DNA of 64,000 nucleotides. It comes from Candidatus Omnitrophota bacterium. Lineage in GTDB: Bacteria; Omnitrophota; Omnitrophia; Omnitrophales; Aquincolibacteriaceae. The stretch lies in assembly GCA_043803685.1 (NCBI GenBank), contig JAZDJU010000103.1:1-64000 (forward strand), written 5' to 3'. Made by a program: the position numbers and the translations under genes. Under the pieces are notes generated by a model. That model ran no database searches. It was not told where the DNA came from and was given only the letters and a program-made list of their open reading frames with translations. This document shows, one piece after another, positions 34,803 through 51,570 of this stretch (position 1 is the stretch's first letter; each line of letters starts with the position of its first letter).

Positions 34803-36374
34803 TTGATGGAAAAGCATGATGGCATTTATACCGTAAGCGCGAGCCGTGTATTGCCCGCCAAGCGATGGCAGGTCCTGCGCCTCCTCACGCGCGTTCAGGA
34901 ATTCCCGAAGTTCATGCCCAATGTCAAAGAGTGCCATGTCCTCAGCCACACCCGCGTCAAGGTCGTGACGGCGTGGAAGGTGGAGATGGGTCACATTCCG
35001 ATCTCCTGGAAGGAAGAAGAGATCTTCGATTTTCACCATTTCATCATCCATTTCAAAGCAGTGGAAGGGGATCTTGAGGTCTTCGAAGGGGAATGGCATC
35101 TCACGGAGCATCCGAGCGGCGGGACCGAGGTCCGGATCGATGCGCGGGTGTGTCTCGGGATCCCGCTCCTTGAAACGATCATCGGCGGGGTCCTGGCGGA
35201 CCGCGTGAAAAAGAATTTTGAAGCCATGCTCCTGGCCTTTGACGGCCTCTTGACCGAACGCCGTTATCAAAAGATCGGCGACCGGCGCGTGAGTGACGTC
35301 CGCGGCTTTGGGGTGATCGGCCATCCCTACAACATGAACCATCTGATCAAATATTTCCAGTCGTTCAAACCCGACATGAAAGTCCCGTCCGAGGAGTTCC
35401 TGGCGAAGGTGTTCGACCTCGTGCCCTCCTACGTTTCCTACGATGTGAAGGAATTTCGCGGCTCAAGCGGCAAAACGACCCGCGGCGCGTTCATCGCCTG
35501 CAACATTATTCCCGACCTTCTCGCCAAAGATATGCAGAAGGGCGTGATGAAGGTTGTGGAATCCTGTAAAGTGGCGGAGAAGCTTGGCCTCGGCATCGTG
35601 GCACTCGGAGGTTTCACTTCGATCGCCGGCGAAACATACGGGGAGGAGTTCAGGAAATTGATCCACGTTCCGGTCACGACGGGAAATACCCTGACCGCGG
35701 CACTAGCCATCGAAGGTGTTCTGAAAGCCGCGCGTCTCCGGGAGTTGGATCTTTCGAGGTCCAAGGTCACAGTGATCGGCGGGGCGGGGGATATCGGCAG
35801 CGCTTGTGCTCGGGCTTTGGTAGACAAGGTGAGCGACATCGTCATCACAAGCCGGAGCGTTGAGAACCTGGAGCATATGCGGAAATCGCTCGCGATGTTC
35901 GGAAAGGCGAAGTTCCACGGCATTCATGACAATAACGAAGCTGTCCGTGACGCGGATATCGTGATCGCGGCGGCGAGCGTCTCCCGTTCGATCCTCGATA
36001 TCGCGAGTTTCAAACCCGGTGCCATTATTTGCGACATTGGATACCCCAAGAACATCTCTTACCGGGAATGCGACCGCCAGGACATCCTGATCTTTTCGGG
36101 AGGGATCTGTTCTCTGCCGCAGGAATTCAACGCGGGATTCGATATCGGTCTGCCGTCCTCGAAAGTTCTCTACGGCTGCTTTTCGGAGGCGATCGTCCTG
36201 GCGCTCGAGGAACGGTACGTGAACTATTCGTGGGGGAAGGGGAACATCACCCAGGAGAAAATGGCGGAGATCCTCGACCTTGCCCGGAAAAACGGATTTG
36301 AGCTCGCTCCCTTTTTCTGGGGCCGCCGCCTCGTGACCGACGAAGAAGTGAAGGCGATCAAAATCAAGACATGA
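34803..36374 (+). CDS. SRPBCC/START domain fused to long-chain acyl-ACP reductase (AAR)-like domain
   Basis: N-terminal ~150 aa cyclase-like (FPKFMPNVKEC, GDLEVFEGEW). C-terminal motifs match cyanobacterial AAR: FGVIGH, ALGGFTSI, TTGNT, GGAGDIGSA, DIGYPKN, GCFSEA, NYSWGKGNIT.EKM. Confidence 0.8.
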   Translation: MMEKHDGIYTVSASRVLPAKRWQVLRLLTRVQEFPKFMPNVKECHVLSHTRVKVVTAWKVEMGHIPISWKEEEIFDFHHFIIHFKAVEGDLEVFEGEWHLTEHPSGGTEVRIDARVCLGIPLLETIIGGVLADRVKKNFEAMLLAFDGLLTERRYQKIGDRRVSDVRGFGVIGHPYNMNHLIKYFQSFKPDMKVPSEEFLAKVFDLVPSYVSYDVKEFRGSSGKTTRGAFIACNIIPDLLAKDMQKGVMKVVESCKVAEKLGLGIVALGGFTSIAGETYGEEFRKLIHVPVTTGNTLTAALAIEGVLKAARLRELDLSRSKVTVIGGAGDIGSACARALVDKVSDIVITSRSVENLEHMRKSLAMFGKAKFHGIHDNNEAVRDADIVIAAASVSRSILDIASFKPGAIICDIGYPKNISYRECDRQDILIFSGGICSLPQEFNAGFDIGLPSSKVLYGCFSEAIVLALEERYVNYSWGKGNITQEKMAEILDLARKNGFELAPFFWGRRLVTDEEVKAIKIKT

Positions 36375-36668
36375 GACTGCAGACCGCTACCAAACCCCAA
36401 TGGTTTGTTACGACTTCGGCAGGAACTCGATGTTCCTTTCCGAGTCGAGACCACAGACCGAGGACACCTGAAAAAAGGCTGTCATTGCGACCTTGCGATT
36501 GTCTTGCGGTAGCAAGACGCAAGGGAAGCAATCTCGTTTCTGAAGCGAAAGATTGCCGCAGTCGTCCGCCACGAATCTCGGCGGACTCCTTCGCAATGAC
36601 GGCGGTTATTAACTCCTCAACGATTGACGAGAACGCTTCGAGTCTCCGGTCTTCGGTCTTCGGTCTCC
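36374..36668. repeat. Composite repeat: inverted heptamer arms (AGACCNC / GNGGTCT), 71-bp hairpin cassette and GTCATTGCG...CGCAATGAC palindrome
   Basis: 36380..36450 matches 50711..50781 (59/71 by manual alignment); 36481..36600 is related to 39117..39208 and 43610..43701. Confidence 0.75.
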
Positions 36669-36678
36669 ACGGGGTTTT

Positions 36679-38904
36679 ATGCCTCAATTAACCCGTGCGT
36701 TTCAATTCAACTGGTATGCCGTACCTGTCTTCGCTGTCGGGATCCTGATGTTCCTGATCGCGCTCTTTATTTTTCTTCAGAACAGGCGCTCCCGCGTCAA
36801 TTTCTCGTTCTTCCTGATCGGGATCTGCGGCCTTTTCTGGTTCCTGGGCGTTGCCGGAACTTATGCCGCGAGCACTCCGGCGTTCGCGCTGGCCTTCTAC
36901 CGGACTGTGACGTTCCTCGGGGTCGCCTTGATCGCGCCCTGCACCCATTATTTTTCCGCGACGTGGCTTGGGCTTTTTGACAAACAAAAAGTCGCGATCC
37001 GGACCGGTTTTTTCTTCGGTGCGGCCTTTTACATCGTGGGCCTTTTTTCTCCGCTCAGTTTTCCGGGCGTCTATCATTACTTCTGGGGTTTTTATCCCAT
37101 CTACGGGCCCCTGAATTACTATTTCTTCGGATTCTTCTTTCTCGTGCTCTTTTGCGCCTTCTATAACTTCTTCAGCGCGCTTTTCAGAGAGCCGAAGGGC
37201 GTGCGCCATACCCAGATCGGGCTGATCACCCTCGGCTTCCTGGTTTCCTTCATGGGCTCGTTCGATTATGTGCCCAAGCTCCTTTACTATTCCGTCTATC
37301 CGATGGGGTTCCTCTGTGTGTTCTTCTGGATCCTGGTCGTGGCGTACGCGATCATCCGCTACAAGGCGATGGATATCGAGACCGTGATCCATAAGACACT
37401 GATGTGGCTGGCTACGATGGTTGCGGCGGTCATTCCTTTCGGAATTCTGGTGTACTGGGCCCAGCACTTTCGGGGGCCGTCGTCCCCTTGGGGTTGCACG
37501 CTCGATAGCGTTATGGTGGCCATTACCTTTTATTTTTATTTCCGGTCCCTGAAGCCCCGGCTCGATCATTTATTCCAGCGTCAGCGGAAGAACCTGCTCG
37601 CGATCATGACGCAGTTCTCGCGGGAGCTTGTGCTCCTGAAGAACCTCCGCGATCTTTTGCAGAGTTTTGCCCGCATGTGTCGCCGCCAGCTCTATGTGCG
37701 CCGCCTCTCGGTCTTCCTGCTGGATGACAAGAACGATGAATACGTTCCGGCCATCGCGAAGGGGCTGCGGAACCTTAAACCCATTCGCAAAGACCATCCG
37801 TTCCTTGTCTGGCTTGAGAAAGAGGACGCGGTCGTGATGGGGAACCTTGTCAGCACCCACCCGGAGGTCGAAGCGTTCAAGGGCGAGGTTGAGGAATTCT
37901 TCCGTGCGACGCAGGGAATGGTCGCGGTGCCGCTGGTGCTGGGAGGGAAACTCATCGGAGTGGTGAGCCTCGGCCGGAAGGCGAACTTGAAGCCCTATCG
38001 TTCCGGGGAAGTCCAGTTCCTCACCGAGCTCAAGATCCCGGTGACGATCGCGTTCTCGAATTCCATGCAGTATGAAAATATCAGCGAGCTTTACACCCAG
38101 GTCCGGGGGATGAGCGAGGAACTCAAGCGCTGGAACGTGGAGCTGGAGAAGCGCGTGGAAGACCGGACGCGGGAACTTGTGAGGACGCAGGAGCAGTTGA
38201 TCCAGGCGGAAAAACTGGCGACTTTGGGAACGCTTGCCGGTGGCGTGGCGCACGAGATCAATAATCCGCTTACGGCGGTATTGACGAACGCGCAGATCCT
38301 CAAGATGACCGCCGACTCCGATACCAAAGAGTCGCTGGACCTGATCGAGGAAGGCGCGAAGCGCTGCCAGGGGATCGTGCAGAAGCTCATGAAATACGCC
38401 CGGAAGACCGCGGAAGAGGCGCCTCACAAGGACGTCGATCTTCGCGAGATCGTGAAGGGGACTTGCTCGCTTCTCGGGTTCCAGTTCCAGCAGGAGAGTA
38501 TTGAGGTCGAGATGAAGCTCGGGGCTGTTCCTCCCGTGAAAGGGATCGCGGGGGAGCTCGATCAAGTCCTCACGAACCTTCTCGTGAACGCCCGCGATGC
38601 CATATTAGCTACAAAAAAAGACGGTCCCTCCGGTCCCAAAGCGCCGAAGGGCAGGATCATCGTTGAGACGCGCGAAGTCTCCGGGGCTGTCGAGCTTGTG
38701 GTGACGGACAACGGCATCGGCATTCCCAAAGAGAACCAGAAAAAGATCTTCGATCCCTTCTTCACCACCAAGGACGTCGGCTCCGGCACCGGCCTTGGTC
38801 TCTCCATTACCTTCGGCATCCTCAAGCGCCACAGCGCCACCATCTCCGTCGCCTCCGAACCTGGGAAGGGAGCAACCTTCGTGGTTAACTTCCCCAAGAA
38901 GTAG
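36679..38904 (+). CDS. Sensor histidine kinase 1: HisKA_7TM-like N-terminus, GAF, HisKA, HATPase
   Basis: Many N-terminal TMs; VPLVLGGKLIGVVSLG (GAF), AHEINNPL, NLLVNA, DNGIG, FFTTK, GTGLGL. Confidence 0.9.
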   Translation: MPQLTRAFQFNWYAVPVFAVGILMFLIALFIFLQNRRSRVNFSFFLIGICGLFWFLGVAGTYAASTPAFALAFYRTVTFLGVALIAPCTHYFSATWLGLFDKQKVAIRTGFFFGAAFYIVGLFSPLSFPGVYHYFWGFYPIYGPLNYYFFGFFFLVLFCAFYNFFSALFREPKGVRHTQIGLITLGFLVSFMGSFDYVPKLLYYSVYPMGFLCVFFWILVVAYAIIRYKAMDIETVIHKTLMWLATMVAAVIPFGILVYWAQHFRGPSSPWGCTLDSVMVAITFYFYFRSLKPRLDHLFQRQRKNLLAIMTQFSRELVLLKNLRDLLQSFARMCRRQLYVRRLSVFLLDDKNDEYVPAIAKGLRNLKPIRKDHPFLVWLEKEDAVVMGNLVSTHPEVEAFKGEVEEFFRATQGMVAVPLVLGGKLIGVVSLGRKANLKPYRSGEVQFLTELKIPVTIAFSNSMQYENISELYTQVRGMSEELKRWNVELEKRVEDRTRELVRTQEQLIQAEKLATLGTLAGGVAHEINNPLTAVLTNAQILKMTADSDTKESLDLIEEGAKRCQGIVQKLMKYARKTAEEAPHKDVDLREIVKGTCSLLGFQFQQESIEVEMKLGAVPPVKGIAGELDQVLTNLLVNARDAILATKKDGPSGPKAPKGRIIVETREVSGAVELVVTDNGIGIPKENQKKIFDPFFTTKDVGSGTGLGLSITFGILKRHSATISVASEPGKGATFVVNFPKK

Positions 38905-38929
38905 CAAGGTATGTCGTAAAATTCTGCCC

Positions 38930-39506
38930 GATCGTGAATGCGTGCCAGGCGGTCAAGCCCAATTCTCCTTCAGATGATTCAAAAGTTAATTGGACTAGCC
39001 CTGGCAACCTTCGATCAAAAGAAAATGGAGGCCAGGACAAGGAAGGCGGTAAGACAGGGGAGATTGTAATAACAGCAACAACGGGAGCCACGAGCCACGG
39101 GACACGTGCCTCGTCTGTCATTGCGAAGGAGTCCGCCGAAGATTTTGGCGGACGACTGCGGCAATCTCAAGACAAGATTGCTTTGTCGTCTTCGCGACTC
39201 GCAATGACGGATGCTAGGTCGAGCCAAGGGACATGTGATGAGGCTTTTTAAAATTCACGTGGCACGTGGCTCGAGGAACGTGTCCCGGTTGTTATCACTA
39301 TCCAGGACACCGGCCCCGGGATTCCCGCCGACAAACTCAAAGACGTCTTCCGTCCTTTTTACACGACCAAAGCCGAAGGCACAGGTCTCGGCCTTTATAT
39401 TACCCAGCAACTCGTCGAAAAGATCCGTGGCCGGATCGAAGTCCATTCCGAGGTTGGCGTCGGCACAACATTCACGGTTTCTTTGTCGGGATCTCTAAGA
39501 CCCTAA
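38930..39506 (+). pseudogene. Orphan HATPase fragment; duplicate of the 3' end of kinase 42323..44002 with an internal TAA
   Basis: 38930..39480 aligns without gaps to 43423..43973; TTA changed to TAA at 39249; no sensor or HisKA part. Confidence 0.88.
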
Positions 39507-39541
39507 GCGGGGGCGTAGAAAAAGCCCAATACGACATACTA

Positions 39542-39563
39542 TATTGTATTATTTAATACAATA
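39542..39563. promoter_or_regulatory. Perfect AT-rich inverted repeat (operator-like)
   Basis: TATTGTATTA-TT-TAATACAATA. Confidence 0.45.
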
Positions 39564-39619: not shown

Positions 39620-40003
39620 TTGGCGTTTTCGGGGTATCAACAGGCGACGCAATACGGATGGAAGCGGGAGGGGGAAGCGATTCTCTTCGATCTTTATCCC
39701 GGCAAGCGCGTTTATACTACCAAACTTTTGTCGTCTCCGCTGGATCGCGGGAGATGCCGGAAATGGAACGAGTGGAAAAAGATCTTCGTGGGAATTTTGA
39801 ACCCGGAAGATCTTGTGACCTCCAAAATGTTCCGGGGCACAGAAACCGACATTCAGGATTGCCTGTTGCTTTTTGCGAAGGAAAAGATCGATCTGGAAAA
39901 GTTTAAAAAGCGTTACCGGGAAACAGCCCAATACGAGATTAGCGAGGCTAAGGTTTTGAAGAATCTCGAAATCTTGCTTAAGCGGCTTGGAGAGGAAAAA
40001 TAA
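39620..40003 (+). CDS. Probable 5'-truncated nucleotidyltransferase-like (DUF6036-like) protein
   Basis: LNPEDLVTSKMFRGTETDIQD resembles the C-terminal DL..SK..R...D..D motif of this group; N-terminal GG/DxD part not seen. Confidence 0.45.
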   Translation: MAFSGYQQATQYGWKREGEAILFDLYPGKRVYTTKLLSSPLDRGRCRKWNEWKKIFVGILNPEDLVTSKMFRGTETDIQDCLLLFAKEKIDLEKFKKRYRETAQYEISEAKVLKNLEILLKRLGEEK

Positions 40004-40698
40004 TGAAGAAAGCCAACAAAGGTGCATTGCTGGATCAGCTGACTCGCTACGGTTATGTCCTGTCGGCGCCGCAGGATTCTATGAATCCAGAAGAGGTCCT
40101 TAAGGCGCTTCTCGATCAGGAGGATATGAGATTACTCGAGGGATTTCCTGTGGTTCTTGCCCATGCGCTTTCGGGTCACGGAACTCTTCAGTGGGAGGAC
40201 AAAAAATGGTCTCCCGGGAAAGAACTTTTCTCTAAAGTCAAAGAGCGCTGGACTGTTTTAATGGGGTTGAGCCTTCTTTTGTTCCGTCTTTTCGGATTGC
40301 CCAAGCCACTTGAAGATCGCGCCTATCAACTTCTCAAGAAAAGTCCTGACGGAGAAAAAGTCCTCGGAGGTCTCGAAAAGGATTTTTCTGGCTCCGGTGA
40401 AGTCCTGGCTGCGGGGATGAGATTTTCGGCGGAACGACTCAAAAATAGTTTTCGGAATTATGTTTTATTGCAAGACCAGGAGGGGGGGCTGCAGGAACAG
40501 AAAGATTCTCTTGAATTCGAACTGCGCCTTTCCGAGCTCTTTACGCCCCGGCAGAAGGAGTTGCTCGCCAAGCGACTTGACCGGAAACCGTTCTCCAAAA
40601 CCGAACGGGAATATTATTACCGGGTGGTGAAAAAAAGGCTGAAAGCGCTTGCGGACGAGCGGGTCTACCAGATGGCCCGCAAGCTCGTTTTTTCATAG
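40003..40698 (+). CDS. Hypothetical protein with C-terminal HTH-like segment
   Basis: Coupled to the upstream ORF (TAATG); LFTPRQKELL...EYYYRVVKKRL. Confidence 0.55.
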   Translation: MKKANKGALLDQLTRYGYVLSAPQDSMNPEEVLKALLDQEDMRLLEGFPVVLAHALSGHGTLQWEDKKWSPGKELFSKVKERWTVLMGLSLLLFRLFGLPKPLEDRAYQLLKKSPDGEKVLGGLEKDFSGSGEVLAAGMRFSAERLKNSFRNYVLLQDQEGGLQEQKDSLEFELRLSELFTPRQKELLAKRLDRKPFSKTEREYYYRVVKKRLKALADERVYQMARKLVFS

Positions 40699-40778
40699 TT
40701 GCGGGTTTGGCGTAGGGTGGGGTATTGACGGGAAGCTAATGCTATGATAACCTTGGTTATGATAACGGAGGTTACTAT

Positions 40779-42104
40779 ATGAAATTTTATGACAGAGAAG
40801 AGGAGCTGGCGGAGCTGGAAAAGCTCCTGGGACAGACGGCAAAGAGCTCGCACATGGCGGTTTTGACCGGGAGGAGGCGGGTCGGCAAGACACTTCTTTC
40901 CCTGGAATTTGTCAAAAACAAAAAGTATCTGTATTTCTTCGTATCCAAGAAATCGGAGACACTCCTGTGCGAGGAATATGCAGGGGAGATCCGACGCCTC
41001 TTCCCGGATGCGGCTATTGCGGACGGGATACGTTCTTTCAAGGATCTTTTTCATCTACTGCTCGTGCTTGCCCGTGATGAATCCTTCACAGTGATCATCG
41101 ACGAATTCCAGGAGTTTACCCATATCAATCCTGCGGTTTATTCCGAGATCCAGAAACTATGGGATCTTAACAAGACCCAAAGCCGGTTGAATCTGATCTG
41201 CGTTGGCTCGGTCTATTCTCTCATGCACAAGATCTTTGAAGGCGCTAAGGAGCCGCTGTTCAACCGCGCGGACCGGATCTTGACGCTTAAGCCGTTCCCC
41301 CTCAAGGTTCTGGCTCAGGTCTTGTGTGATTACAAGGCCGAAAATACCCGGCTTCTTTTCGATTATTATCTTTTTACGGGAGGCAGTCCGAAGTACATCG
41401 ATCTTCTCGTCGAAAACAAAGCATTTTCCGTAAAAGAGATCCTGGATCTTATGATCGCCGCGGACTCGCCGTTCATCAACGAGGGAAAGAATCTCTTGAT
41501 CGAGGAATTCGGCAAGGAATATGGCACCTATTTCTCCATTCTCGAAATGATCGCTTCCGGAAAAACAGGCCGCTCCGAGATCGAATCGATCCTGGAAACG
41601 AATGTCGGCGGTTATCTGGACCGGCTGGAGAAGGATTATGCGGTCATCGAGAGGCGAAAACCCGTTAACGCGAAACAGAATTCGAAGACGCAAAAATATG
41701 TGATCACAGATAACTTCCTGAATTTCTGGTTCCGGTTCGTTTATCGCAACCGTTCCGCTATCGAAACCGGGAATTTCAAATACATCAAAGACGAGATCCT
41801 CTGGAATTATTCGACCTATTCGGGAAAGATCCTTGAACGATTCTACAGGGCTCTTTTTGCCGAAACAGGCCGTTACAATCGCATCGGTTCTTATTGGGAC
41901 AGGAGTCATCAGAATGAAGTCGACCTCGTGGCCATCAACGATATGAAAAAAGAAATGGTCGTGGCCGAGGTGAAGTTGAACCCCAAGAAGATTAATATCG
42001 AGGACTTGAAACGCAGGGCTTCGCGTCTTCTGCCGGACTTTGTGAAATATAAAGTGGAATGGCTTGCCCTCAGCCTCGAAAATATTGGGGATTTTCTCCG
42101 GTAG
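40779..42104 (+). CDS. Archaeal-type AAA ATPase with C-terminal DUF234 (PD-(D/E)XK-like) domain
   Basis: FYDREEEL, GRRRVGKT (Walker A), IIDEFQ (Walker B), DNFLNFWFRF, EVDLVA...EVK. Confidence 0.88.
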   Translation: MKFYDREEELAELEKLLGQTAKSSHMAVLTGRRRVGKTLLSLEFVKNKKYLYFFVSKKSETLLCEEYAGEIRRLFPDAAIADGIRSFKDLFHLLLVLARDESFTVIIDEFQEFTHINPAVYSEIQKLWDLNKTQSRLNLICVGSVYSLMHKIFEGAKEPLFNRADRILTLKPFPLKVLAQVLCDYKAENTRLLFDYYLFTGGSPKYIDLLVENKAFSVKEILDLMIAADSPFINEGKNLLIEEFGKEYGTYFSILEMIASGKTGRSEIESILETNVGGYLDRLEKDYAVIERRKPVNAKQNSKTQKYVITDNFLNFWFRFVYRNRSAIETGNFKYIKDEILWNYSTYSGKILERFYRALFAETGRYNRIGSYWDRSHQNEVDLVAINDMKKEMVVAEVKLNPKKINIEDLKRRASRLLPDFVKYKVEWLALSLENIGDFLR

Positions 42105-42322: not shown

Positions 42323-44002
42323 GTGAATCCTTATAACTTTTCTATCCTGTGTTTTGGGTTTTGTGCTGTTTTTCTGGGTTTATTAGTCTGGCTAAAGCGT
42401 CAAGATTTGTTGGGCCAAAAATATTTCGTTTTTTCTTTAACATGCGCTGCGTTTTCTTTGCCTTTCGCCAATAACTTCAATTTAAGTACCTCTCATGCTT
42501 CAGCTCTTCTGACAAGTCGCCTGGCGAATGGCTTCGCAATTTTTATTCCGGTGACATGGTATGATTTCGCGTTAGTTTTTATCGGCAAACAAAAAGAAAG
42601 AAAAACGCTCATCCGATTTTTGTATTTTTTTTCACTAGTTCTCTTTTGTTTTATCTTTTCAGAAAAATATGTGACCGATGTTAAGTGGATATCTGGCTTT
42701 TATTCCGCAGTTGCCGGTCCTCTGCATTATTTTTTCTCCTCTCTTTTCTTTACAGTCGTGCCCTTAAGTTTTTTCGAGCTTCTTCGCGGAATGAAAACAG
42801 CTCGTCATCAGGAACAGCAAAACATTAAATGGGTAGCGATTTTTGTTGGCTTGTCATTTTTAGGAGGTAGCTTCACCTTAGTGCCTGCCTATGGGATAGC
42901 CTTTCCCCAGTATGGATTATTTTTGATGCCCATTTACCCCTTTGCTTTGGCGTATTTTATGATCAAACAAAAACTCTTCGACGTAGAAGAGCTCGCGCAG
43001 GCGGCGCACAGGGACAAGCTGACGGCGATAGGGGTGCTGGCGGCGAGCATCAACCACGAGGTGAAGAACCCACTCTTTATCATCAAAGGTCTCGCGGAAA
43101 GTTGTCTCGATCGGCAGAAAGAGGGGATATTTCCGACGAAAGAAAAGGCGCTTGAGAGCGCTAATGACGCCATGAAGCGAAGCGTCGAGCAGGCGGACCG
43201 GGCGATGGATATCATCAAGCGGTTGTCGCTTTTCGCCAAAGCCGGGATCGACAGTGAGATCAAATTCGAGCCGGTGAATGTCGCGCAAGTGATCGAGGAT
43301 GTCCTGCCACTCGTTCGTTACGAGCTTGCCGCGCACGGCATTGCCCTCTCGCGTGATATTCCTCCCAATCTTCCCGATGTCTCCGCCGACCGCCGCTATC
43401 TGGAGGAGATCCTGTTTAATCTGATCGTGAATGCATGCCAGGCGATCAAGCCCAATTCTCCTTCAGATGATTCAAAGGTTAATTGGACTAGCCCTGGCAA
43501 CCTTCGATCAAAAGAAAATGGAGGCCAGGACAAGGAAGGCGGCTTGTCTGGGGAGATTGTAATAACAGCAACAACGGGAGCCACGAGCCACGGGACACGT
43601 GCCTCGTCTGTCATTGCGAAGGAGTCCGCCGAAGATTTTGGCGGACGACTGCGGCAATCTAAAAACGAGATTGCTTCGTCGTCTTCGCGACTCGCAATGA
43701 CGGATGCTAAGTTGGGCCAAGGGACAGGTAATGAGGCTTTTTTAAATTCACGTGGCACGAGGCTCGTGGAACGTGTCCCGGTTGTGATCACTATCCAGGA
43801 CACCGGCCCCGGGATTCCCGCCGACAAGCTGAAGGACGTCTTCCGTCCCTTTTATACGACCAAAGCCGAAGGTACGGGTCTCGGGCTTTATATCACCCAG
43901 CAACTCGTCGAAAAGATCCGTGGCCGGATCGACGTCCACTCCGAGATCGGTGTAGGGACAACCTTTACGGTTCTTTTACCAGTAGGGGGACAGTCCCTTT
44001 AA
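42323..44002 (+). CDS. Sensor histidine kinase 2: HisKA_7TM-like N-terminus; HATPase with in-frame repeat insertions
   Basis: About 7 TMs; NHEVKNPL, NLIVNA, DTGPG, FYTTK, GTGLGL; roughly 90 extra aa between the N and G1 boxes. Confidence 0.88.
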   Translation: MNPYNFSILCFGFCAVFLGLLVWLKRQDLLGQKYFVFSLTCAAFSLPFANNFNLSTSHASALLTSRLANGFAIFIPVTWYDFALVFIGKQKERKTLIRFLYFFSLVLFCFIFSEKYVTDVKWISGFYSAVAGPLHYFFSSLFFTVVPLSFFELLRGMKTARHQEQQNIKWVAIFVGLSFLGGSFTLVPAYGIAFPQYGLFLMPIYPFALAYFMIKQKLFDVEELAQAAHRDKLTAIGVLAASINHEVKNPLFIIKGLAESCLDRQKEGIFPTKEKALESANDAMKRSVEQADRAMDIIKRLSLFAKAGIDSEIKFEPVNVAQVIEDVLPLVRYELAAHGIALSRDIPPNLPDVSADRRYLEEILFNLIVNACQAIKPNSPSDDSKVNWTSPGNLRSKENGGQDKEGGLSGEIVITATTGATSHGTRASSVIAKESAEDFGGRLRQSKNEIASSSSRLAMTDAKLGQGTGNEAFLNSRGTRLVERVPVVITIQDTGPGIPADKLKDVFRPFYTTKAEGTGLGLYITQQLVEKIRGRIDVHSEIGVGTTFTVLLPVGGQSL

Positions 44003-44071: not shown

Positions 44072-45472
44072 ATGAACTATTACGGATTCAGTAGCTTGTT
44101 TAATGGAATCGTGGTTCTCACAGTAGGTTTTTATCTTTTATCCCGCCAAAGGCAAAACGGTCTTTACCAAAGTTTTGCGGTTTTTTCTGCCTGTGTAGGG
44201 CTGTGGTGTATTTTTTACTCGTTTTGGCAAGCTCAAACGAGCAAGGCTGAAGCTTTGATGTATATGCGGCTAGCCATGATTCCATGCTATCCCATCCCGT
44301 TTGCCTTCTTGTGGTTTGTGCTGACCTTGGTGGGTGTCAAAAAAAGGTGTTGGTGGTTGCCTGTGGTGATTGGGACGCCTCTTGTTTTCATGATATTTGG
44401 TTTTAGTCCATTTATGCTCGCAGACATGGTGCCCAAACTTAATTTTAAATTTTGGTCTGTTCCAGGCGCTTTAATGCATTTTTACGTTTTTTTGTTTTGC
44501 ATAGTTGTTTTATATAGTTATGGCGTTTTGATTCAAGGGTTTAAAAAAGCGAGTGGAATTCAAAAATGGCAGATTAAATGGGTGATGCTGTCTTTGCTGC
44601 CATCCTGGGTCGGAGGAGCAACGAATTGGTTTTTGTGGTACGACATCCCTATTCCACCGGTTGCTCATTTTTTTATCGGTGTTGGGTTTTTAATATTGGC
44701 ATATGCAATAGTAAGAAGCCGTCTTTTTGACGTTGATGCTTTGGCGGATTATGTCCAGGAAGCCAAGCTCTCGGCGCTGGGGATCATGGCAACCAGCATC
44801 AACCATGAGGTGCGGAATCCGCTCTTCGTGATCAGAGGGCTGGCAGAAACGTTGAGGGATCGACCGGACACGGCTCCCGAAAAGATCAAAGACATCGCTC
44901 AGCGGGCTATGGCGCAGGCAGACCGGGCGCTCGAGATCATCCGGAATTTTTCAGAATACGCCAAGCGGCAAAGTTCCAAGACCTTTGACAAGACGCCCCT
45001 CGATGTCCGTGAAATTCTCGATAGCATCGTACCTCTTGTAGCCAGCGAACTTGCTCTGGACCAGATCCGGTTGCAGGTGAATATCCCCGCGAAGACGATG
45101 GTTTGCGTCGACCGGCATTCTTTGGAGGAGATATTCATCAACCTTATTGTGAATGCTTGTCAGGCGATGCCTAACGGTGGAGAGATAGAAATAACAGCAG
45201 AAACGGGGGACAGGGGCCAGGGGACATGCGGACCTGTCGCACACCCGGGGTTGCGTGAAGTTCAACCCCGGGTGTTGATCAAGGTGATAGACACCGGCCC
45301 AGGCCTGGCCCAGGACCAATTGAGCAGGATCTTCGAACCTTTTTACACCACCAAAGCCTCCGGTACCGGTCTTGGTCTTTATGTGGTCAAGCAACTGGTG
45401 GGAAAGAATGGCGGCAAAATCAGCGTTGCATCCATTCCAGGTAAGGGCACGACGTTTACCATCACTTTATAA
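44072..45472 (+). CDS. Sensor histidine kinase 3: HisKA_7TM-like N-terminus, HisKA, HATPase
   Basis: About 7 TMs; NHEVRNPL, NLIVNA, DTGPG, GTGLGL; paralog of kinase 2. Confidence 0.88.
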   Translation: MNYYGFSSLFNGIVVLTVGFYLLSRQRQNGLYQSFAVFSACVGLWCIFYSFWQAQTSKAEALMYMRLAMIPCYPIPFAFLWFVLTLVGVKKRCWWLPVVIGTPLVFMIFGFSPFMLADMVPKLNFKFWSVPGALMHFYVFLFCIVVLYSYGVLIQGFKKASGIQKWQIKWVMLSLLPSWVGGATNWFLWYDIPIPPVAHFFIGVGFLILAYAIVRSRLFDVDALADYVQEAKLSALGIMATSINHEVRNPLFVIRGLAETLRDRPDTAPEKIKDIAQRAMAQADRALEIIRNFSEYAKRQSSKTFDKTPLDVREILDSIVPLVASELALDQIRLQVNIPAKTMVCVDRHSLEEIFINLIVNACQAMPNGGEIEITAETGDRGQGTCGPVAHPGLREVQPRVLIKVIDTGPGLAQDQLSRIFEPFYTTKASGTGLGLYVVKQLVGKNGGKISVASIPGKGTTFTITL

Positions 45473-45529: not shown

Positions 45530-46594
45530 ATGAGGAGGAGCATGAAATCATTCTCCGTTACGACCTATGCAGCGCTTCGCAGAAAAGTCGAAGAGACGCT
45601 GCTTCGCGGCCAGAGAAAGATCGAAGAAGCAAAAGTCCTTACTTATTGGCAAACCGGACGCTACATCAATCAGCACGTCAAGGTTAACGGAGGAAGGGCG
45701 GAATACGGCGAACAAGTCATCCTGAGACTTTCCGAAGATCTCAAAGTCGGGGATGACCTGCTTTATCGTTGTTCGCGATTTGCCGCGCTTTTGCCGATTT
45801 CCGCCAGCTGGCGGAAATTAACCTGGTCACATTTGCGCGCTTTATGCCGTGTGTCTGATGACCGGAAGCGTCTGGAATTACTGGAACAAGCCGTGCGGAA
45901 CGAATGGCCTTCGGCCGTGCTTGAAACGAAGATCCGCAATCTGAATTGGGAGGTTCGCGCGGCAGCCCTGGAAGGCAAACCGCCGTCGCTTCCTCCCGTG
46001 CCCGCATTGGGCCCTTTTTACACCTACCAGGTGATCGCGCCCCAGACCGTGCATTCCTCCTCCAAACAGCTCCTTCTGGACCTTGGTTTTTCCTGCCGAC
46101 TTGAGATGGAAATTTTCCAGGGCACCCATTTCCCTGCGGGAACGATCCTAGAATCCAAAAGGCGTGACGAAGGGGAGAAGAGTGCTCCCAAGCACGCGCC
46201 GATCGTCCGGGGAAATTCTATTTTTAAACTTGTCAGATCGGGAGGAGGCAACGAAGCGCTCTACACGTACAAGGCTTTTGTGCAAAAGTTCATCGACGCA
46301 GACACCTTCCACGTGGAGTTCAGGTTGGGGTTCGGGCAGCTCCGCGAAGAAACCATCCGTTTAAAAGGAGTCGACTGCCCGGAGATCAATACGCCGGAGG
46401 GCAAGGCCGCCAAGCGTTTTGTCGAGCGCGAACTGGGGGGTTGTGAATTCATTACCGTCAAATCCACCCAGACCCGCAAAGAAAAATGGGGTCGTTACCT
46501 GGCCGACCTTTTTTACCAGGATAAAAGCGGAAAACTGATCTATTTGAATAATCTGCTACTCGAAAAAGGACACGCCGTTCGTGTCCGGGGCTAG
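45530..46594 (+). CDS. DUF1016 N-terminal-like domain fused to thermonuclease (SNase)-like domain
   Basis: YWQTGRYI, YGEQVI..LSEDL, LTWSHLRAL, EQA..NEW; C-terminal IDADT, IRLKGVDCPE, KWGRYLA, LN..LL..G.A. Confidence 0.75.
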   Translation: MRRSMKSFSVTTYAALRRKVEETLLRGQRKIEEAKVLTYWQTGRYINQHVKVNGGRAEYGEQVILRLSEDLKVGDDLLYRCSRFAALLPISASWRKLTWSHLRALCRVSDDRKRLELLEQAVRNEWPSAVLETKIRNLNWEVRAAALEGKPPSLPPVPALGPFYTYQVIAPQTVHSSSKQLLLDLGFSCRLEMEIFQGTHFPAGTILESKRRDEGEKSAPKHAPIVRGNSIFKLVRSGGGNEALYTYKAFVQKFIDADTFHVEFRLGFGQLREETIRLKGVDCPEINTPEGKAAKRFVERELGGCEFITVKSTQTRKEKWGRYLADLFYQDKSGKLIYLNNLLLEKGHAVRVRG

Positions 46595-46786: not shown

Positions 46787-48379
46787 ATGGCAAAAAAAAT
46801 TCTCATAATTGATGATGATCTTTTGATTTTAAAGAGTCTCACTAGTGTTTTTATTCGAGATGGATGGGATGTTGAGACCTGCCAAGATGGGGATGCTGCT
46901 TTAGGGAGAATCGCGAAAGAAATTTATCAGTGTGTTTTGCTTGATATCCGCATGCCAGGGCTTGATGGCACTCAGATAATGTCTAGCATGAGGGCGGCTG
47001 AGGCTAAACAGCCGGGGCGCAGGCAGCATGTTGTTGTAATGACAGGTTATGCGGATGAGAATGCGATTGTGCGCATTTTCGGATTAGGTGCAAGCGACTA
47101 TATCCAAAAACCATTTGATGTCCAGGAGTTGTTAAAAAAAGCTAACGCATGCCTCAATGCGGAAGAATTTATTAGTGGTTATGGTCGCGTTGAACAGGAG
47201 GGCGAAGCTGATGGAAAAACATTTAAAAAAATTCGTAAAAATTATGATTTTGCTAGTATTTTAAAAAAAGCAGAACTTCTAGAGAAAGAAATTAATGTTC
47301 GCCTTACTCATATCAGAGGTTGTACCTACAACACGGAATTTTGGAAGGGTAACATTGAGAACCCAATAGGGATTGCTCAGATTCCGCTGGGTTTGGTGGG
47401 GCCAATTGCGGTAAAGGGGAAACACGCGCAAGGTGAATTTTGGGTCCCTATGGCCACTACTGAAGGCGCTTTGACATTGACCTATGACTTAGGTTCACGA
47501 TTATTATCTATGGCTGGTCCAGTCGAGGCGGAGGTCATTTCGAAGGTGGTGCATATTTCACCAATGTTTCCCATTATTAGCGATGAAGACAAACGCGTGG
47601 CAGAGTTTATTGATAACCACTATGAGGAAATAAAAAAAGTAGCGGAAGCTGACAGCCATCATACAAAACTGCTCGGCATTGAAAGGCATCATATAAAAAA
47701 TCAATTTGTTTTAAAATTTAAATATGATACTGGAGATGCTCACGGCCTTAATATGATTAACCATGCGACTTTTTATGCTTGTAAATATATTCAGGCGAAA
47801 ACAGGAGCCGACTTTTATCATAGATCCCACTACAGCGGCGTCAAACATCATTCTTGGGTTAATGAAAATGAAGGGTATGGCCGAGTCGTGAAGGCTCGTG
47901 GCATTGTTTGCCAAAAGGCACTTGGCATGCTTGGGGTGAGCGCAAAAAAAATGAAGGACTTTTTTGACCGTTGCGTTCAATGCGGCACTGCCGCTGAAAT
48001 TAAATCGGTCAATGTCCATGCAGCCAATGGGTTGGCCGCAATTTTCATTGCTTGCGGTCAGGATGTGGCGGATTTAAGCAGCGCTCATACATGTGCAACT
48101 ACGGTTGAGATCGCCGGTGAAGGAAAGGATTTGCTTATCCAAGTCGAGCTGAAAAATTTGCTGATAGCGACCGTCGGTGGCGGCACCGGCCTCGGTACTC
48201 AGAGTGAATGCCTGAATATTATGGATTGTTTGGGTTCGGGTAAATCTGATAAGTTTGCAGAGATTATAGCGGCCATTGTTCTGGCGGGTGAATTTCCAAC
48301 TGCGGCCGCAGTGATTAATGAAACTTACGTCGACATTCATGATAAGTATGGTCGCAACAAATCTAAGATAGTAAAGTGA
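46787..48379 (+). CDS. Receiver domain fused to class I HMG-CoA reductase-like domain
   Basis: ILIIDDD, LLDIRMP, MTG and QKPF receiver motifs; IENPIG, PMATTEG, GDAHGLN, HAAN, ACGQD, TVGGGT and LAGE reductase motifs. Confidence 0.88.
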   Translation: MAKKILIIDDDLLILKSLTSVFIRDGWDVETCQDGDAALGRIAKEIYQCVLLDIRMPGLDGTQIMSSMRAAEAKQPGRRQHVVVMTGYADENAIVRIFGLGASDYIQKPFDVQELLKKANACLNAEEFISGYGRVEQEGEADGKTFKKIRKNYDFASILKKAELLEKEINVRLTHIRGCTYNTEFWKGNIENPIGIAQIPLGLVGPIAVKGKHAQGEFWVPMATTEGALTLTYDLGSRLLSMAGPVEAEVISKVVHISPMFPIISDEDKRVAEFIDNHYEEIKKVAEADSHHTKLLGIERHHIKNQFVLKFKYDTGDAHGLNMINHATFYACKYIQAKTGADFYHRSHYSGVKHHSWVNENEGYGRVVKARGIVCQKALGMLGVSAKKMKDFFDRCVQCGTAAEIKSVNVHAANGLAAIFIACGQDVADLSSAHTCATTVEIAGEGKDLLIQVELKNLLIATVGGGTGLGTQSECLNIMDCLGSGKSDKFAEIIAAIVLAGEFPTAAAVINETYVDIHDKYGRNKSKIVK

Positions 48380-50670
48380 ATCTCCTCTCCTTTTTCTTTC
48401 TACTGTCTTCTCTTGTTACATTCACATTGGGCATCTGGGTCGTCAGCGCAAATCCCAAGAATAGAATTTATCTTTCTTGGTTTCTTTTTTGTTCTAGTGT
48501 TGCTGTGTGGAGTTTTGGATTGGGCGTTCTTACGATAGCTCCGAATTTGGGCGTAGCGAGCTTTTTTTACTTCGTTCATTATTTTGGTGCAATCAATATC
48601 CCGGTTATGTTTTTGTGTTTCATACGTGTTTATTTTTTGCATGATGCTAAGCCTCAGAAATCACCAGATTTGATCATTGGCTGCATTTTAGCCGCTTTCC
48701 AAATAGCCGCGTTTTTTACTGGTCATCTCGTTGGCCCGCTGATGCCAAAGTGGCAGTTTAGGTACTATACAACGCCGAGTGTTTTGTATCCATTTTTCAT
48801 GGTGTATTTCTTTTTTTATGTGAATTATTGTTTTTTTCTGATGATTAGAGCCTTTCGACGAGATAAAGCTTTAAGGGAGAAACGGAATGTTTTCATTATT
48901 GTGGCAACAGCATGTGGATTCACTGGTGGCAGCACTGCTTTCTTTCTAGTTTACAACATTGATTTGCCGCCCTATGGAATTTATTGTTTTTTGCTTTTCC
49001 CCATCATTACTTCATACGCCATTATCAAACATGGTTTAATGGAAATCGAAGTAATTATCCGCAAGACAATTGTCTTCGCGGGGCTTTTTGGGGTGCTTAT
49101 GGCGGTTGTTGGTGGTGTTACAGCGCTAGCGCAGAGTTATGTTGGACAACTGGTCGGGATGGGGACAACAGCGCGACAGCTTCTTAGTATTCTTGTGGCG
49201 ATAGCCCTGTTTGACCCAACCCGCAAATTGCTAGTCAATCTCACGGACAAATTCCTCTTCCAGAAAAAATATGATTATCACAAGTTGCTGAAGGATGCGT
49301 CGCGGGGGATGTCGAATATCGAGAGCCTGGAGCATCTTCTGGGGCTGGTGGTGCACTTCATTACGATGAAGATGCGCGTGAAGAACGCGGCGGTGCTGAT
49401 GCGGGAGGGGGCAAGCGACCAGTACAAGCTCGTGTATCAGCGCGGGTTCGACAAGAAGTTCCTGACCATGACCCTCTATGAGAACGATCCTCTGATCCAT
49501 TATCTCGAGAGCCACAAAGAAGCGGTGGATATCGAGCGCATCAAGGAGCAGGTCGAGGCGGCGTCCTATCAGCGGGACAAAAGCGAGAAGGCTTACGATT
49601 ACGAAGCGATCCGGGAGCGGATGACTCAATTGCAGGCCAGCTGCTGCGTGCCGAGCTTTCTGGGGCGCGAGCTCCGGAACATCCTGATGCTGGGGGAAAA
49701 GAAATCCGGCGAGTATTATTCGAACGAGGACCTGAACCTGCTTTACACGCTGGCGCAGGAATCTTCCATCGCGATCGAGAACGCGCGGCTTTATGACGAG
49801 GCCCTTCGGAAGACCGACGAGCTGGAACATATCAACGATCAGCTCGAGCATTCCAAAGGGCTTCTGATGAAAGCCCTGCAGGAGGCCGAGGGCGCGAATA
49901 AGCAATTGCAGGACACCCAGGCCCAGCTCATTCACGAGCAGAAGATGGCGACCCTGGGACGGCTGGCGGCGTCGGTGGGGCATGAGGTGAATAACCCGCT
50001 TACGATCCTTTCCATGAACGTGTCGCGCGTGATCCTGAAACACCGGAAGAACCAGGACATGAAAGTGACGGAGATCCTGGACGTCTTCGACAAAATGGAA
50101 AAGAACATCGAGCGCATCAAGGCGGTGGTGAATACGCTGACCGGGCTTCTCAAGAAATCAGAGAAAGGGAAGTTCGAGCCCTTGTCGCTCAAGTTGATCC
50201 TGGAGGAGACCCTGCCGCTCGTGCAGTTCCAGACCTATCTCGACAATCTCTCCGGCACCGAGGTCGATTTTAATGTGCCCGGCAACGTGCCGCTCATTCG
50301 CGGCGACCTCGAGCGTCTGCAGGAAGTGTTTCTGAATCTCTTCATCAACGCTTACCATGCCATGGCCAGCAAGCGGCACCGCAAGATCGGGGTCCATGCC
50401 GAGATCGACCCGAGAGACCCGACCATGGTCGCGATCCATTTCAGGGACAACGGTTCGGGCATGAACGAAGAGACCGCGAAGAAGATCTTCAATTACGGGT
50501 TCACGACCAAGCCCCCCGGTAAAGGGTCCGGGCTCGGTCTTTACATGTGCAAGTACATCATCGAGCTGCACGGCGGAACGATCACCGTCGACAGTAAGCT
50601 CGGCGAGGGCACCACGTTCACTCTGACCCTCCCCGCGTATTCGGAGAAGATGGCGCTGAAAGCGCCGTGA
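48376..50670 (+). CDS. Sensor histidine kinase 4: HisKA_7TM-like N-terminus, GAF, HisKA, HATPase
   Basis: GTG start overlaps the upstream stop; LGEKKSGEYY..ED..L (GAF), GHEVNNPL, DNGSG, GSGLGL. Confidence 0.9.
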   Translation: MNLLSFFFLLSSLVTFTLGIWVVSANPKNRIYLSWFLFCSSVAVWSFGLGVLTIAPNLGVASFFYFVHYFGAINIPVMFLCFIRVYFLHDAKPQKSPDLIIGCILAAFQIAAFFTGHLVGPLMPKWQFRYYTTPSVLYPFFMVYFFFYVNYCFFLMIRAFRRDKALREKRNVFIIVATACGFTGGSTAFFLVYNIDLPPYGIYCFLLFPIITSYAIIKHGLMEIEVIIRKTIVFAGLFGVLMAVVGGVTALAQSYVGQLVGMGTTARQLLSILVAIALFDPTRKLLVNLTDKFLFQKKYDYHKLLKDASRGMSNIESLEHLLGLVVHFITMKMRVKNAAVLMREGASDQYKLVYQRGFDKKFLTMTLYENDPLIHYLESHKEAVDIERIKEQVEAASYQRDKSEKAYDYEAIRERMTQLQASCCVPSFLGRELRNILMLGEKKSGEYYSNEDLNLLYTLAQESSIAIENARLYDEALRKTDELEHINDQLEHSKGLLMKALQEAEGANKQLQDTQAQLIHEQKMATLGRLAASVGHEVNNPLTILSMNVSRVILKHRKNQDMKVTEILDVFDKMEKNIERIKAVVNTLTGLLKKSEKGKFEPLSLKLILEETLPLVQFQTYLDNLSGTEVDFNVPGNVPLIRGDLERLQEVFLNLFINAYHAMASKRHRKIGVHAEIDPRDPTMVAIHFRDNGSGMNEETAKKIFNYGFTTKPPGKGSGLGLYMCKYIIELHGGTITVDSKLGEGTTFTLTLPAYSEKMALKAP

Positions 50671-50809
50671 GACGGGAAGCAAGAGGCAGGAGGCAAGAGA
50701 CAAGAGACAACAGACTGCCACCAAACCTCAATGGTTTGGTGCGACTTCGGCATGGACTGTACATTCCTGTCCGAGTCGAGACGGCAGACCACAGACCGGA
50801 GACAACAGA

Positions 50810-51181
50810 TTGAGAGACTTTAAGAAGATCAAGGTCTATCAGAAGGCAGAAGCGCTTATTCTGGTCATCTATAAGCTGACGAAAGATTTTCCCAAAGAAG
50901 AGATTTTTGGTTTAACGTCGCAGCTTCGTCGGGCTGTCGTTTCAGTCGCCTGTAATATCGCGGAAGGGTCGAGTAGACAACATCTCAAGGACTATATGCA
51001 TTTTTTATACATTGCACGAGGTTCGTTAGCGGAAGTAAAATGTCTCGTCGGCGTTTCTAGCGAATTGGGTTATGTTGCAAAAGCTGATCATTCTCAGATT
51101 GAAGCTTTATTGGAAGAGGCTTCAAAAATGCTTTATGGACTGATCAAGTCGGTCAAAGAGGAAATAGGAGAGAGGCTGTAG
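50810..51181 (+). CDS. Four-helix-bundle protein (23S rRNA IVP / bAvd-like family)
   Basis: FPKEEIFGLTSQLRRAVVSVACNIAEG, FLYIARGSLAE. Confidence 0.92.
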   Translation: MRDFKKIKVYQKAEALILVIYKLTKDFPKEEIFGLTSQLRRAVVSVACNIAEGSSRQHLKDYMHFLYIARGSLAEVKCLVGVSSELGYVAKADHSQIEALLEEASKMLYGLIKSVKEEIGERL

Positions 51182-51210
51182 TCTGTGGTCTTCGGTCTGC
51201 AGTCTTATTT

Positions 51211-51570
51211 ATGAAAAAGAAGATTCTCATTGTGGATGACGAGGCGGGGATCGTTCAGGAGATCAAGGAATTCCTGGAGGAGGAGGGCTATGAGGTCCAT
51301 ATGGCGGACTCGGCCAAGGCGGGGATCTTGCTCGTCGAGGAGATCCATCCGGACGTGATCCTGATCGACGTGAAACTGCCGGATGCTTCCGGGACCGAGG
51401 TGCTTCGCTTCTGCAAGGAAAAGTCTCCCAAGACCAAGACCATCATGGTGACGGGGTACGTGGACCAGCACTTGATCGACGAGGCGGAATCGATCGGCCG
51501 GGATTCCTTTCTCCAGAAACCTTTTAATCTTGAAGAGATATTGAAGGAAATCGAACGCCTGACGGCCTAA
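51211..51570 (+). CDS. Single-domain response regulator
   Basis: ILIVDDE, LIDVKLP, VTG, QKPF. Confidence 0.9.
   Translation: MKKKILIVDDEAGIVQEIKEFLEEEGYEVHMADSAKAGILLVEEIHPDVILIDVKLPDASGTEVLRFCKEKSPKTKTIMVTGYVDQHLIDEAESIGRDSFLQKPFNLEEILKEIERLTA

Follow-up and report, generated by a model that had tools for sequence, protein, structure and literature searches.

What do biosynthetic enzymes and membrane-bound histidine kinases do for one another when their genes stand side by side? The question is raised by positions 34803-51570 of a 64,000-nucleotide (nt) stretch of contig JAZDJU010000103.1 from a Candidatus Omnitrophota bacterium (assembly GCA_043803685.1); this whole stretch is called the window below. 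Profile searches of the window's proteins identified four intact kinases with HisKA_7TM, HisKA and HATPase_c domains inside 14 kb, as a first-pass annotation of this DNA had claimed. Named here by their start positions, they all exceed the PF16927 cut-off of 28.6 bits (36679, 36.8; 42323, 37.3; 44072, 49.3; 48376, 46.8). The H-, N-, G1- and G2-boxes are whole in all four, with the phosphorylated histidine at His525, His245, His245 and His536, respectively. Kinases 36679 and 48376 are long and contain a GAF domain, recognized over cut-off as PF01590 in the former and, at 24.5 bits and thus slightly below the cut-off of 27, as GAF_3 in the latter; no GAF domain was found by profile search in the short kinases 42323 and 44072. 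Each long kinase follows a reductase fusion on the same strand, again as annotated. START-AAR, a START domain joined to a homologue of acyl-acyl carrier protein (ACP) reductase, precedes kinase 36679 at what we call slot 1, and REC-HMGR, a receiver joined to a 3-hydroxy-3-methylglutaryl (HMG)-CoA reductase fold, precedes kinase 48376 at slot 2. We find that these pairs belong to a real, polymorphic and phylum-wide enzyme-sensor cassette system that resembles synthase-kinase signalling.

Pairing of enzymes with long 7TM kinases

The genome encodes six HisKA_7TM proteins, four of them at this locus, and their seven-transmembrane (7TM) sensors are 19-31% identical to one another. An enzyme gene lies directly upstream of all four long 7TM-GAF kinases, of neither short kinase (0/2) and of none of the 33 other kinases, in a control that used profiles built from the cassette enzymes and matching 51 open reading frames (ORFs) genome-wide. 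At one sister locus of this genome a receiver, FabF, an ACP-sized ORF and a short AAR-like gene precede the long 7TM kinase, and at the other a receiver and an S-adenosylmethionine (SAM) methyltransferase do so. Receivers and a helix-turn-helix (HTH)-cupin gene are found downstream of the kinase at both sister loci.

HisKA_7TM is present in 55 of the 61 genomes of the order and in 193 of the 251 sampled genomes of the phylum; a search of the ESM Atlas gave HisKA_7TM clusters only. For the order, 97 regions around 146 matches of other genomes (among 150 listed of 214) were combined with the three loci of this genome, and the resulting 100 regions yielded 191 7TM ORFs, of which 177 were left after matches shorter than 170 residues and duplicates had been removed. 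An enzyme of acyl or lipid type stands directly upstream of 84 of the 110 long kinases and of none of the 55 short ones, with three long kinases located at contig edges. The slot enzymes of the order comprise AAR-like proteins with or without START, SAM methyltransferases, ketosynthase with ACP, hotdog thioesterases, ICMT, PlsC with HAD, a long short-chain dehydrogenase/reductase (SDR) fusion, HMGR-like enzymes, enoyl-CoA hydratase with GDSL, YiiD with HpaB, alpha/beta hydrolase, aldehyde dehydrogenase, and pyridoxal-phosphate (PLP) enzymes with GNAT. The SAM methyltransferase is the commonest variable-slot enzyme in relatives, and a PDB search with its alignment returned one marginal match. 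In other orders, 60 regions were picked by hand, mostly for long open frames, among 150 matches listed of 537; by hand-assigned labels, 50 of their 56 long kinases follow an enzyme, four do not, one is unknown and one is at a contig edge. Slot types new in these orders are class III aminotransferase, flavin oxidase with nitroreductase, B12 radical SAM enzyme, GMC oxidoreductase and AMP-ligase. The enzyme slot thus carries more than 15 unrelated chemistries and thioester reduction is therefore not its defining trait, so the earlier claim of thioester-reductase synthases paired with 7TM kinases stands for the pairing and is too narrow in the chemistry. The expected association of homologous enzymes with 7TM kinases elsewhere was also found: 71 of 80 START-AAR metagenome loci, some of them near-duplicates, contain a 7TM kinase (46 directly next to the enzyme, 25 within three genes), and at the other nine the contig ends in less than 2 kb.

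A receiver heads 53 of the 63 cassettes without START-AAR and one of 15 START-AAR cassettes, and all 48 cassette-head receivers retain the Asp, Lys and Thr/Ser residues. Profile searches of 34803-51570 revealed receiver-only or receiver-enzyme proteins and no DNA-binding response regulator. The outer-membrane fatty-acid channel FadL occurs in eight of the 100 regions. Three further genes that had been assigned to the system, a lone receiver at 51211, a thiolase at 33334 and an MMPL protein at 53247, are located as claimed. The single-domain receiver is likely the output of the slot-2 kinase. Membership of the thiolase was not borne out, as it is a singleton in the 100 regions and lies near START-AAR in three of the 80 loci, and a role of MMPL as lipid exporter of the system is likewise not supported, since it is confined to nine loci of one genus backbone, behind rmlC.

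The exchange junction and the co-variation of sensor and enzyme

Kinase 48376 is a chimera in which a sensor of foreign composition is joined to a constant core. Its synonymous GC content rises from 0.40 to 0.81 at codon ~302, with the change-point placed at codon 302 (289-304), about position 49279. Fourfold-degenerate sites of receiver, HMGR and sensor have a GC content of 0.42-0.46, those of the kinase core one of 0.89. Slot 2 was recognized in 11 genomes of the genus, ten by the downstream rmlC and one added by hand, and carries seven cassette classes in them. Slot-2 kinases paired with different classes are 15-33% identical in residues 1-210, 35-45% in 211-270, 72% in 271-300 and 71-98% in 301-750, and the phosphotransfer helix is identical in all 11 genomes. 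A GC change-point falls at codons 302-307 in seven of the 11 orthologues, covering six enzyme classes; the step is weaker, earlier or missing in the other four. The splice point of an exchange that replaces one biosynthetic chemistry by an unrelated one can thus be read inside a gene. Slot 1 is conserved in 12 genomes (identity 73% for the sensor, 84% for the core) and kinase 36679 has no GC step. We propose that relatives share slot 1 as a conserved channel and that slot 2 provides each of them with a variable and private one.

Co-variation of sensor and enzyme class extends beyond slot 2. A second member of the same class was available for 76 of the 80 labelled long kinases that have all domains. 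The nearest relative from another genome shares the enzyme class in 70 of the 76 when sensors are compared, in 39 for GAF domains and in 29 for cores (shuffles: mean 11, maximum 23); because kin are not independent, these figures are descriptions and not probabilities. Enzyme labels change 15 times on the FastTree tree of 7TM domains, 35 times on that of GAF domains and 38 times on that of cores. In 18 methyltransferase cassettes, the enzyme correlates with the 7TM domain (rho 0.66) and not with the core (rho -0.16). Sensor clades specific to an enzyme class turn up repeatedly, joined to different kinase cores and in different orders. That sensor and enzyme co-vary, as the first-pass annotation would lead one to expect, is therefore upheld by the nearest-sensor agreement of 70/76 against 29/76 for the core.

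Comparison of slot-1 loci shows that this sensor, too, can still be swapped. Where START-AAR is 87-89% identical to the one in the window, the sensor is 81-84% identical at three loci without an inserted SDR-fusion tailoring gene and 35% identical at two loci with it, the core remaining at 82-87%. Where START-AAR has drifted to 60-79%, sensor identity averages 77% without the SDR-fusion gene (seven loci) and 32.5% with it (four loci). The sensor thus tracks the content of the pathway better than the ancestry of the enzyme.

Enzymes, sensors and other genes of the locus

START-AAR consists of a Polyketide_cyc/START domain at residues 18-142 followed by an AAR/PigE-N-like reductase, and its start codon is probably the ATG at 34806, 6 nt past GGAGG. 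It is clearly homologous to cyanobacterial acyl-ACP reductase (PDB 6JZQ, E 1e-35) and to the N-terminal reductase of PigE (PDB 4PPM, E 2e-25), but lies far under both family cut-offs, with 159.7 against 449.7 bits for the equivalog TIGR04058, and differs from both in the fused START domain and the kinase gene downstream. The NAD(P)H motif is kept, and YGCF aligns to FACF of 6JZQ; the cysteine of this motif, Cys459, at what we take to be the position of the catalytic Cys of the AAR family, is invariant (15/15). Alkane synthesis was considered and rejected, as no aldehyde-deformylating oxygenase (PF11266) was detected in the genome, which is 91% complete. The order of START-AAR and kinase 36679 is as first described, but the genes are not in immediate contact, since 304 nt filled with repeats separate them. 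A 93-nt element follows the stop codon of START-AAR (36367-36459) and that of the slot-2 kinase (50698-50790) in copies that are 82% identical, with two short partial matches elsewhere in the genome, and a 51-nt palindromic element is present in six genomic copies, one of them in the slot-1 spacer. Three further arrangements were noted in other regions: L259 encodes START, an AAR-like protein and a class III aminotransferase, a split PigE-like set; L056 an AAR-like protein with a PP-loop-like protein (by eye); and in L168 an SDR enzyme is fused in frame to the kinase itself (1595 amino acids, aa).

REC-HMGR resembles class I HMG-CoA reductases in fold (PF00368, 269 bits; E 3e-52 to PDB 6HR7 and 8ECG), in its Glu, Lys, Asp and His residues and in its cofactor motifs. 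E226, K353, D426 and H518, presumably the catalytic residues, are invariant (6/6). The enzyme differs from class I HMG-CoA reductases in its fused receiver, in the absence of a mevalonate context and in the altered motifs that we take to bind HMG, where DKK is replaced by VKH and TRAP by HISP (Arg to Ile); it reaches 214 bits against a TIGR00533 cut-off of 442. Mevalonate synthesis was rejected as its function, given the presence of the methylerythritol phosphate (MEP) pathway genes Dxr and IspG, and an HMG-CoA synthase C domain that was not found in the 91% complete genome. With MEP genes in the genome and neither HMG-CoA synthase nor aldehyde-deformylating oxygenase detected, neither slot enzyme fits its textbook pathway. 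Missed family cut-offs, lost HMG-binding residues and undetected partner pathways point to other substrates, and both proteins are likely reductases of other acyl-thioesters. The GTGA overlap of REC-HMGR with kinase 48376 was confirmed at 48376-48379.

The closest named records to the HMGR-like domain are from Omnitrophota (67-88% identity). Five close homologues each precede a 7TM kinase and apparently duplicate loci already counted; 22 distant ones (31-55%) have no following 7TM kinase and one more lacks the contig room for it. The HMGR-like gene of Candidatus Thiosymbion oneisti (L215:4683-5846) keeps the altered substrate loop and lies between a nucleotide-sugar dehydrogenase and pdxS/pdxT. 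A conserved Rhodobacterales-type cluster (L219-L237), in which a distant HMGR-like gene is followed by ORFs of ~300, ~830 and ~380 aa, is unrelated to 7TM kinases. In regions L268, L302, L060 and L090, PilZ is fused to slot enzymes (HMGR-like, radical SAM or an unassigned domain; in L268 by eye), which suggests cyclic di-GMP control of the slot enzyme in place of a receiver.

The sensor of kinase 48376 was modelled from a 148-sequence alignment with a predicted local distance difference test score of 92 and shows seven helices plus two more. Residues 1-237 are best aligned to the adhesion G-protein-coupled receptor (GPCR) ADGRL3 (8JMT; Z 16.8, root-mean-square deviation 4.0 Å over 219 residues), and of the 50 best structural matches nearly all are GPCRs, at 5-12% identity. 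The Foldseek E-value of the GPCR match is only 3e-3, and helical bundles can reach Z ~13 through arrangement alone. The sensor thus models as a GPCR-like fold in its 7TM topology, but the 5-12% identity and the output through a fused histidine kinase set it apart from GPCRs, among which we do not class it. GPCR-like 7TM histidine kinases have been noted before (PMC13581589), and the passages concerned give neither a ligand nor a synthase for them.

The short enzyme-less kinases resemble an array of receptors that turn over rapidly and feed one output. All 17 short kinases of the genus share a single phosphotransfer motif, distinct from both long types, and their sensors average 36% identity. 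The sensor halves of kinases 42323 and 44072 are of low GC (0.48 and 0.44 against 0.64). The former belongs to a short-only clade, with 26% identity to its best match among enzyme-paired sensors, and the latter to a 13-member short clade nested inside the methyltransferase-linked clade (FastTree support 97), with a best match of 35%. The ATPase domain of kinase 42323 contains an in-frame insert of ~100 aa that includes the 51-nt palindromic element, an observation that concerns the stretches 43423-43722 and 38930-39229; short kinases of relatives differ widely in length. Behind the slot-1 kinase lies what is left of a lost fifth, short kinase, a remnant in which 300 nt match the end of kinase 42323 at 95% identity. 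Enzyme-less kinases had been suggested to detect the signals of other strains. Variable, foreign-GC sensors on a conserved phosphotransfer helix agree with this idea, but closeness to paired sensors does not: for 52 of 55 short sensors, identity to enzyme-paired sensors does not exceed 36%, whereas the best match of a paired sensor within its own class has a median of 65%. The possibility that short kinases are copies of neighbours' cognate sensors was mostly rejected, as just three of the 55 reach 43-52% identity to an enzyme-paired sensor. Simple eavesdropping on the slot signals of sister strains is thus not supported, and listening to outside molecules is plausible. Short kinases could also serve as phosphodonors of the cassette receiver because they often stand immediately before it.

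Table 1. Features of the locus, in window coordinates.
Feature	Position	Strand	Remark
START-AAR, slot-1 enzyme: START/SRPBCC with AAR/PigE-N-like NAD(P)H acyl-thioester reductase	34803..36374	+	profiles
Repeat-filled spacer, slot 1	36367..36678	.	93-nt element and 51-nt palindromic element
Slot-1 long kinase, 7TM-(2 helices)-GAF-HisKA-HATPase	36679..38904	+	sensor in START-AAR-linked clade; no GC step
3' remnant of short kinase	38930..39500 (approx.)	+	frameshift and stop
Passenger genes: DUF6036 nucleotidyltransferase, unknown ORF, AAA/DUF234 ATPase	39620..42104	+	not conserved parts
Short kinase, 7TM-HisKA-HATPase, no enzyme	42323..44002	+	profiles
Short kinase, 7TM-HisKA-HATPase, no enzyme	44072..45472	+	profiles
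Passenger DUF1016-SNase gene	45530..46594	+	
Slot-2 enzyme: receiver (Asp53) fused to class-I HMG-CoA-reductase-fold enzyme	46787..48379	+	REC, HMG-CoA_red profiles
Slot-2 long kinase, chimeric: variable sensor modelled as GPCR fold (codons 1-~300) on genus-constant GAF-HisKA-HATPase	48376..50670	+	
Exchanged cassette: receiver, enzyme and sensor half of kinase	46787..49279	+	fourfold-site GC
Passenger four-helix-bundle gene (23S_rRNA_IVP/bAvd-like)	50810..51181	+	
Single-domain receiver (Asp53)	51211..51570	+	tracks kinase core, not cassette

Passenger-type genes that recur between kinases in relatives are AAA ATPases, HEPN/NTase pairs and GIY-YIG genes. Elsewhere in the window, a type II secretion/type IV pilus-like cluster (8454-17453, + strand; PilM, PilO-like, secretin, T2SSE, T2SSF, N-methyl pilin) is followed downstream by a receiver, a glycoamylase-CBM9 gene, an HTH gene and a two-AcrB resistance-nodulation-division (RND) pump at 21735-31704, whose AcrB end belongs to the genus backbone ahead of slot 1. 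A block of low GC (0.37-0.40) at 58019-63882 on the - strand, with an integrase, phage replication protein O and a Thoeris ThsB TIR-like gene (60988-61557), is likely a prophage or mobile element carrying a defence gene. Promoter and terminator scans of the window were at chance level (18 against 13.2 +/- 3.5 and 30 against 25.3 +/- 5.6, respectively), and a tRNA search of the 64 kb found none.

A signalling proposal, its rivals and known systems

From the observed anatomy, pairing asymmetry, co-variation, junction and catalytic residues we consider it probable that the cassettes are swappable synthase-sensor units on constant kinases that serve pherotype-like signalling with a self-made, acyl-derived signal. 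START-AAR would reduce a presumed acyl-ACP or acyl-CoA substrate to an aldehyde via Cys459, and the HMGR-fold enzyme would reduce a presumed non-HMG acyl-CoA to an aldehyde or alcohol. Being hydrophobic, the product would pass into the membrane and out of the cell and be bound by the predicted GPCR-like 7TM bundle, upon which the kinase would alter the phosphorylation of single-domain receivers. The cassette-head receiver, here fused to the enzyme, may tune the enzyme post-translationally and so close a feedback loop. Products, export, binding, wiring and purpose are all putative in this scheme. Recombination at a conserved motif just ahead of GAF may be what swaps receiver, enzyme and sensor jointly at the observed junction. 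Relatives would consequently possess different chemical dialects wired to one output, with the short kinases as a separate fast-turnover receptor array for outside molecules. Among the slot families, enoyl-CoA hydratases, PLP enzymes of oxoamine-synthase type and SAM methyltransferases include the signal synthases RpfF, CqsA and PhcB, respectively.

If the pairing is one of ligand and receptor, it would offer ligands with which prokaryotic GPCR-fold sensors can be tested, signal chemistries that are new (the HMGR fold acting on non-HMG substrates, for example), sensor-kinase parts for modular use and an approach to kin or host recognition in an uncultivated phylum. More tentatively, and in our estimate falling a little short of an even chance, the cassettes form a phylum-wide chemical language with GPCR-fold receptors beside the enzymes that make their ligands, more than 15 chemistries recombined into a fixed kinase at one junction, and arrays of enzyme-less receptors tuned to hosts or neighbours. 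In that case the genomes could be read as a ready ligand-receptor map for prokaryotic GPCR-fold proteins, with signals among them that come from HMG-CoA-reductase and acyl-ACP-reductase folds put to new use and controlled directly by a receiver.

Several observations weigh against the signalling proposal. Of 107 evaluable long kinases, 23 have no listed enzyme directly upstream; in a few cases the position is taken by a different enzyme-like gene or a split receiver. No enzyme is annotated upstream of distant 7TM-GAF kinases from Nitrospirota plasmids (2/2 viewed), the Thiosymbion HMGR-like gene, 55% identical, has no 7TM neighbour, and HMGR-like enzymes in three other orders adjoin sensors outside the HMGR-linked clade. 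At START-AAR loci the enzyme tracks sensor and core alike (rho 0.80 each). In other orders the sensor predicts the class in just 19 of 33 cases (core 10/31); for sensor matches above 170 bits, a cut-off chosen afterwards, the class is right in 17/17. The loci that were compared also supplied the enzyme labels, and related genomes do not count as independent samples. Class is followed equally well by the upstream receiver and the sensor (36/40 each; downstream receiver 11/37) and the cassette moves as one DNA block, so linkage explains part of the co-variation. Across the 100 regions, no exporter travels with the cassette. As a separate observation, regions L033, L038, L042, L043 and L113 contain a subfamily in which one or two long 7TM-GAF kinases come after a receiver and no enzyme is present; the sensors of these kinases form their own clades.

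The system might instead act within the cell. The kinase might regulate a membrane-lipid-modifying enzyme via the fused or adjacent receiver and sense the product inside the membrane of the producing cell, so that no signal passes between cells; many slot enzymes are indeed of lipid-tailoring type (PlsC with HAD, ICMT/PEMT, B12 radical SAM), receivers head 53 of the 63 non-START-AAR cassettes and no exporter is linked to them. We regard such cell-autonomous lipid control as unlikely, because a housekeeping lipid need would not predict that, inside a single genus, seven unrelated chemistries interchange at one slot while the phosphotransfer helix stays identical, nor that imports recur at one junction; FadL near some cassettes also speaks against it. 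Rapid diversification would equally fit conflict, in which the product is an effector against other organisms, antagonistic or host-manipulating, and the sensor provides for autoinduction or for monitoring of the producer itself, much as in peptide-antibiotic clusters. Omnitrophota are regarded as host-dependent, and multi-enzyme cassettes in other orders (ketosynthase, ACP, SDR, nitroreductase, amine oxidase) would suit this idea, to which we nevertheless assign a small chance: most cassettes contain one to three enzymes and no immunity or export gene, and the predicted single-enzyme products are simple aldehydes, alcohols or esters.

A third possibility is that enzyme and sensor are uncoupled neighbours hitchhiking in a recombination hotspot, the sensor reading an unrelated environmental or host cue. 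GC evidence of block transfer, the equal co-variation of the upstream receiver and the passenger genes that accumulate between kinases agree with this. Hitchhiking alone would not account for the asymmetry of 84/110 long against 0/55 short kinases, for class-specific sensor clades on different cores and across orders, for a sensor that is kept while START-AAR drifts and replaced when a tailoring gene is added, or for the translational overlap GTGA, and we find it the least credible of the three rivals. We therefore retain signalling by swappable synthase-sensor cassettes as the preferred explanation.

Two features of synthase-kinase quorum sensing are present in the cassettes: the enzyme is encoded beside the kinase, and the sensor co-varies with it, in part through linkage. 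In CqsA/CqsS, LqsA/LqsS, RpfF/RpfC and LuxM/LuxN, the synthase of an acyl-derived signal adjoins a membrane kinase, and to our knowledge each of these systems has one fixed chemistry. PLP-type and enoyl-CoA-hydratase enzymes, as in CqsA- and RpfF-type systems, occur in the slot. Membership of LuxN was rejected, as its model matches the kinase core only (511-754) and far under cut-off. Staphylococcal agr is analogous to the ComQXPA pherotype systems, and we know of no pherotype system that varies beyond one chemistry.

No published description of these cassettes was found in the open literature, a search that left subscription papers and supplements outside; 'HisKA_7TM' as a literature term gave nothing, which is weak evidence as the index may mishandle the underscore. 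The Omnitrophota papers retrieved do not describe the cassettes in their titles or abstract openings, nor do passages of PMC12419801. A 2020 survey reports CqsA, LuxI and PpyS homologues beside kinases in Candidate Phyla Radiation (CPR) genomes (PMC7567580); 'Omnitroph', '7TM' and 'PhcB' are all absent from its main text, and its Table S4 may list related CPR loci.

In the passages of PMC4008528 on Bacillus ComQXPA, synthase genes lie directly upstream of a membrane histidine kinase with a variable N-terminal membrane domain on a conserved cytoplasmic domain, and close relatives are polymorphic, all as in the cassettes. Unlike ComQXPA, the cassettes swap unrelated enzyme superfamilies instead of alleles of one chemistry, have no peptide precursor, and combine a HisKA_7TM sensor and GAF with receiver-only regulators, several channels and enzyme-less receptors per genome. 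No ComQ-like family was found among the scanned slot genes, peptides under 60 aa lying outside the search. In Ralstonia PhcB-PhcS-PhcR-PhcQ, a SAM methyltransferase makes a fatty-acid methyl ester signal and is encoded beside a sensor kinase and receiver-type proteins, according to the relevant sections of PMC6989110. SAM methyltransferases at the slot in relatives and at one sister locus resemble this arrangement by gene type alone, but the window itself contains no methyltransferase, and chemistry swapping is not described for Phc in those sections (PMC6989110). By analogy, the cassettes would work like ComQXPA and Phc while belonging, by the tests run, to neither, and what distinguishes them from known pherotypes is that unrelated biosynthetic chemistries replace one another on one kinase.

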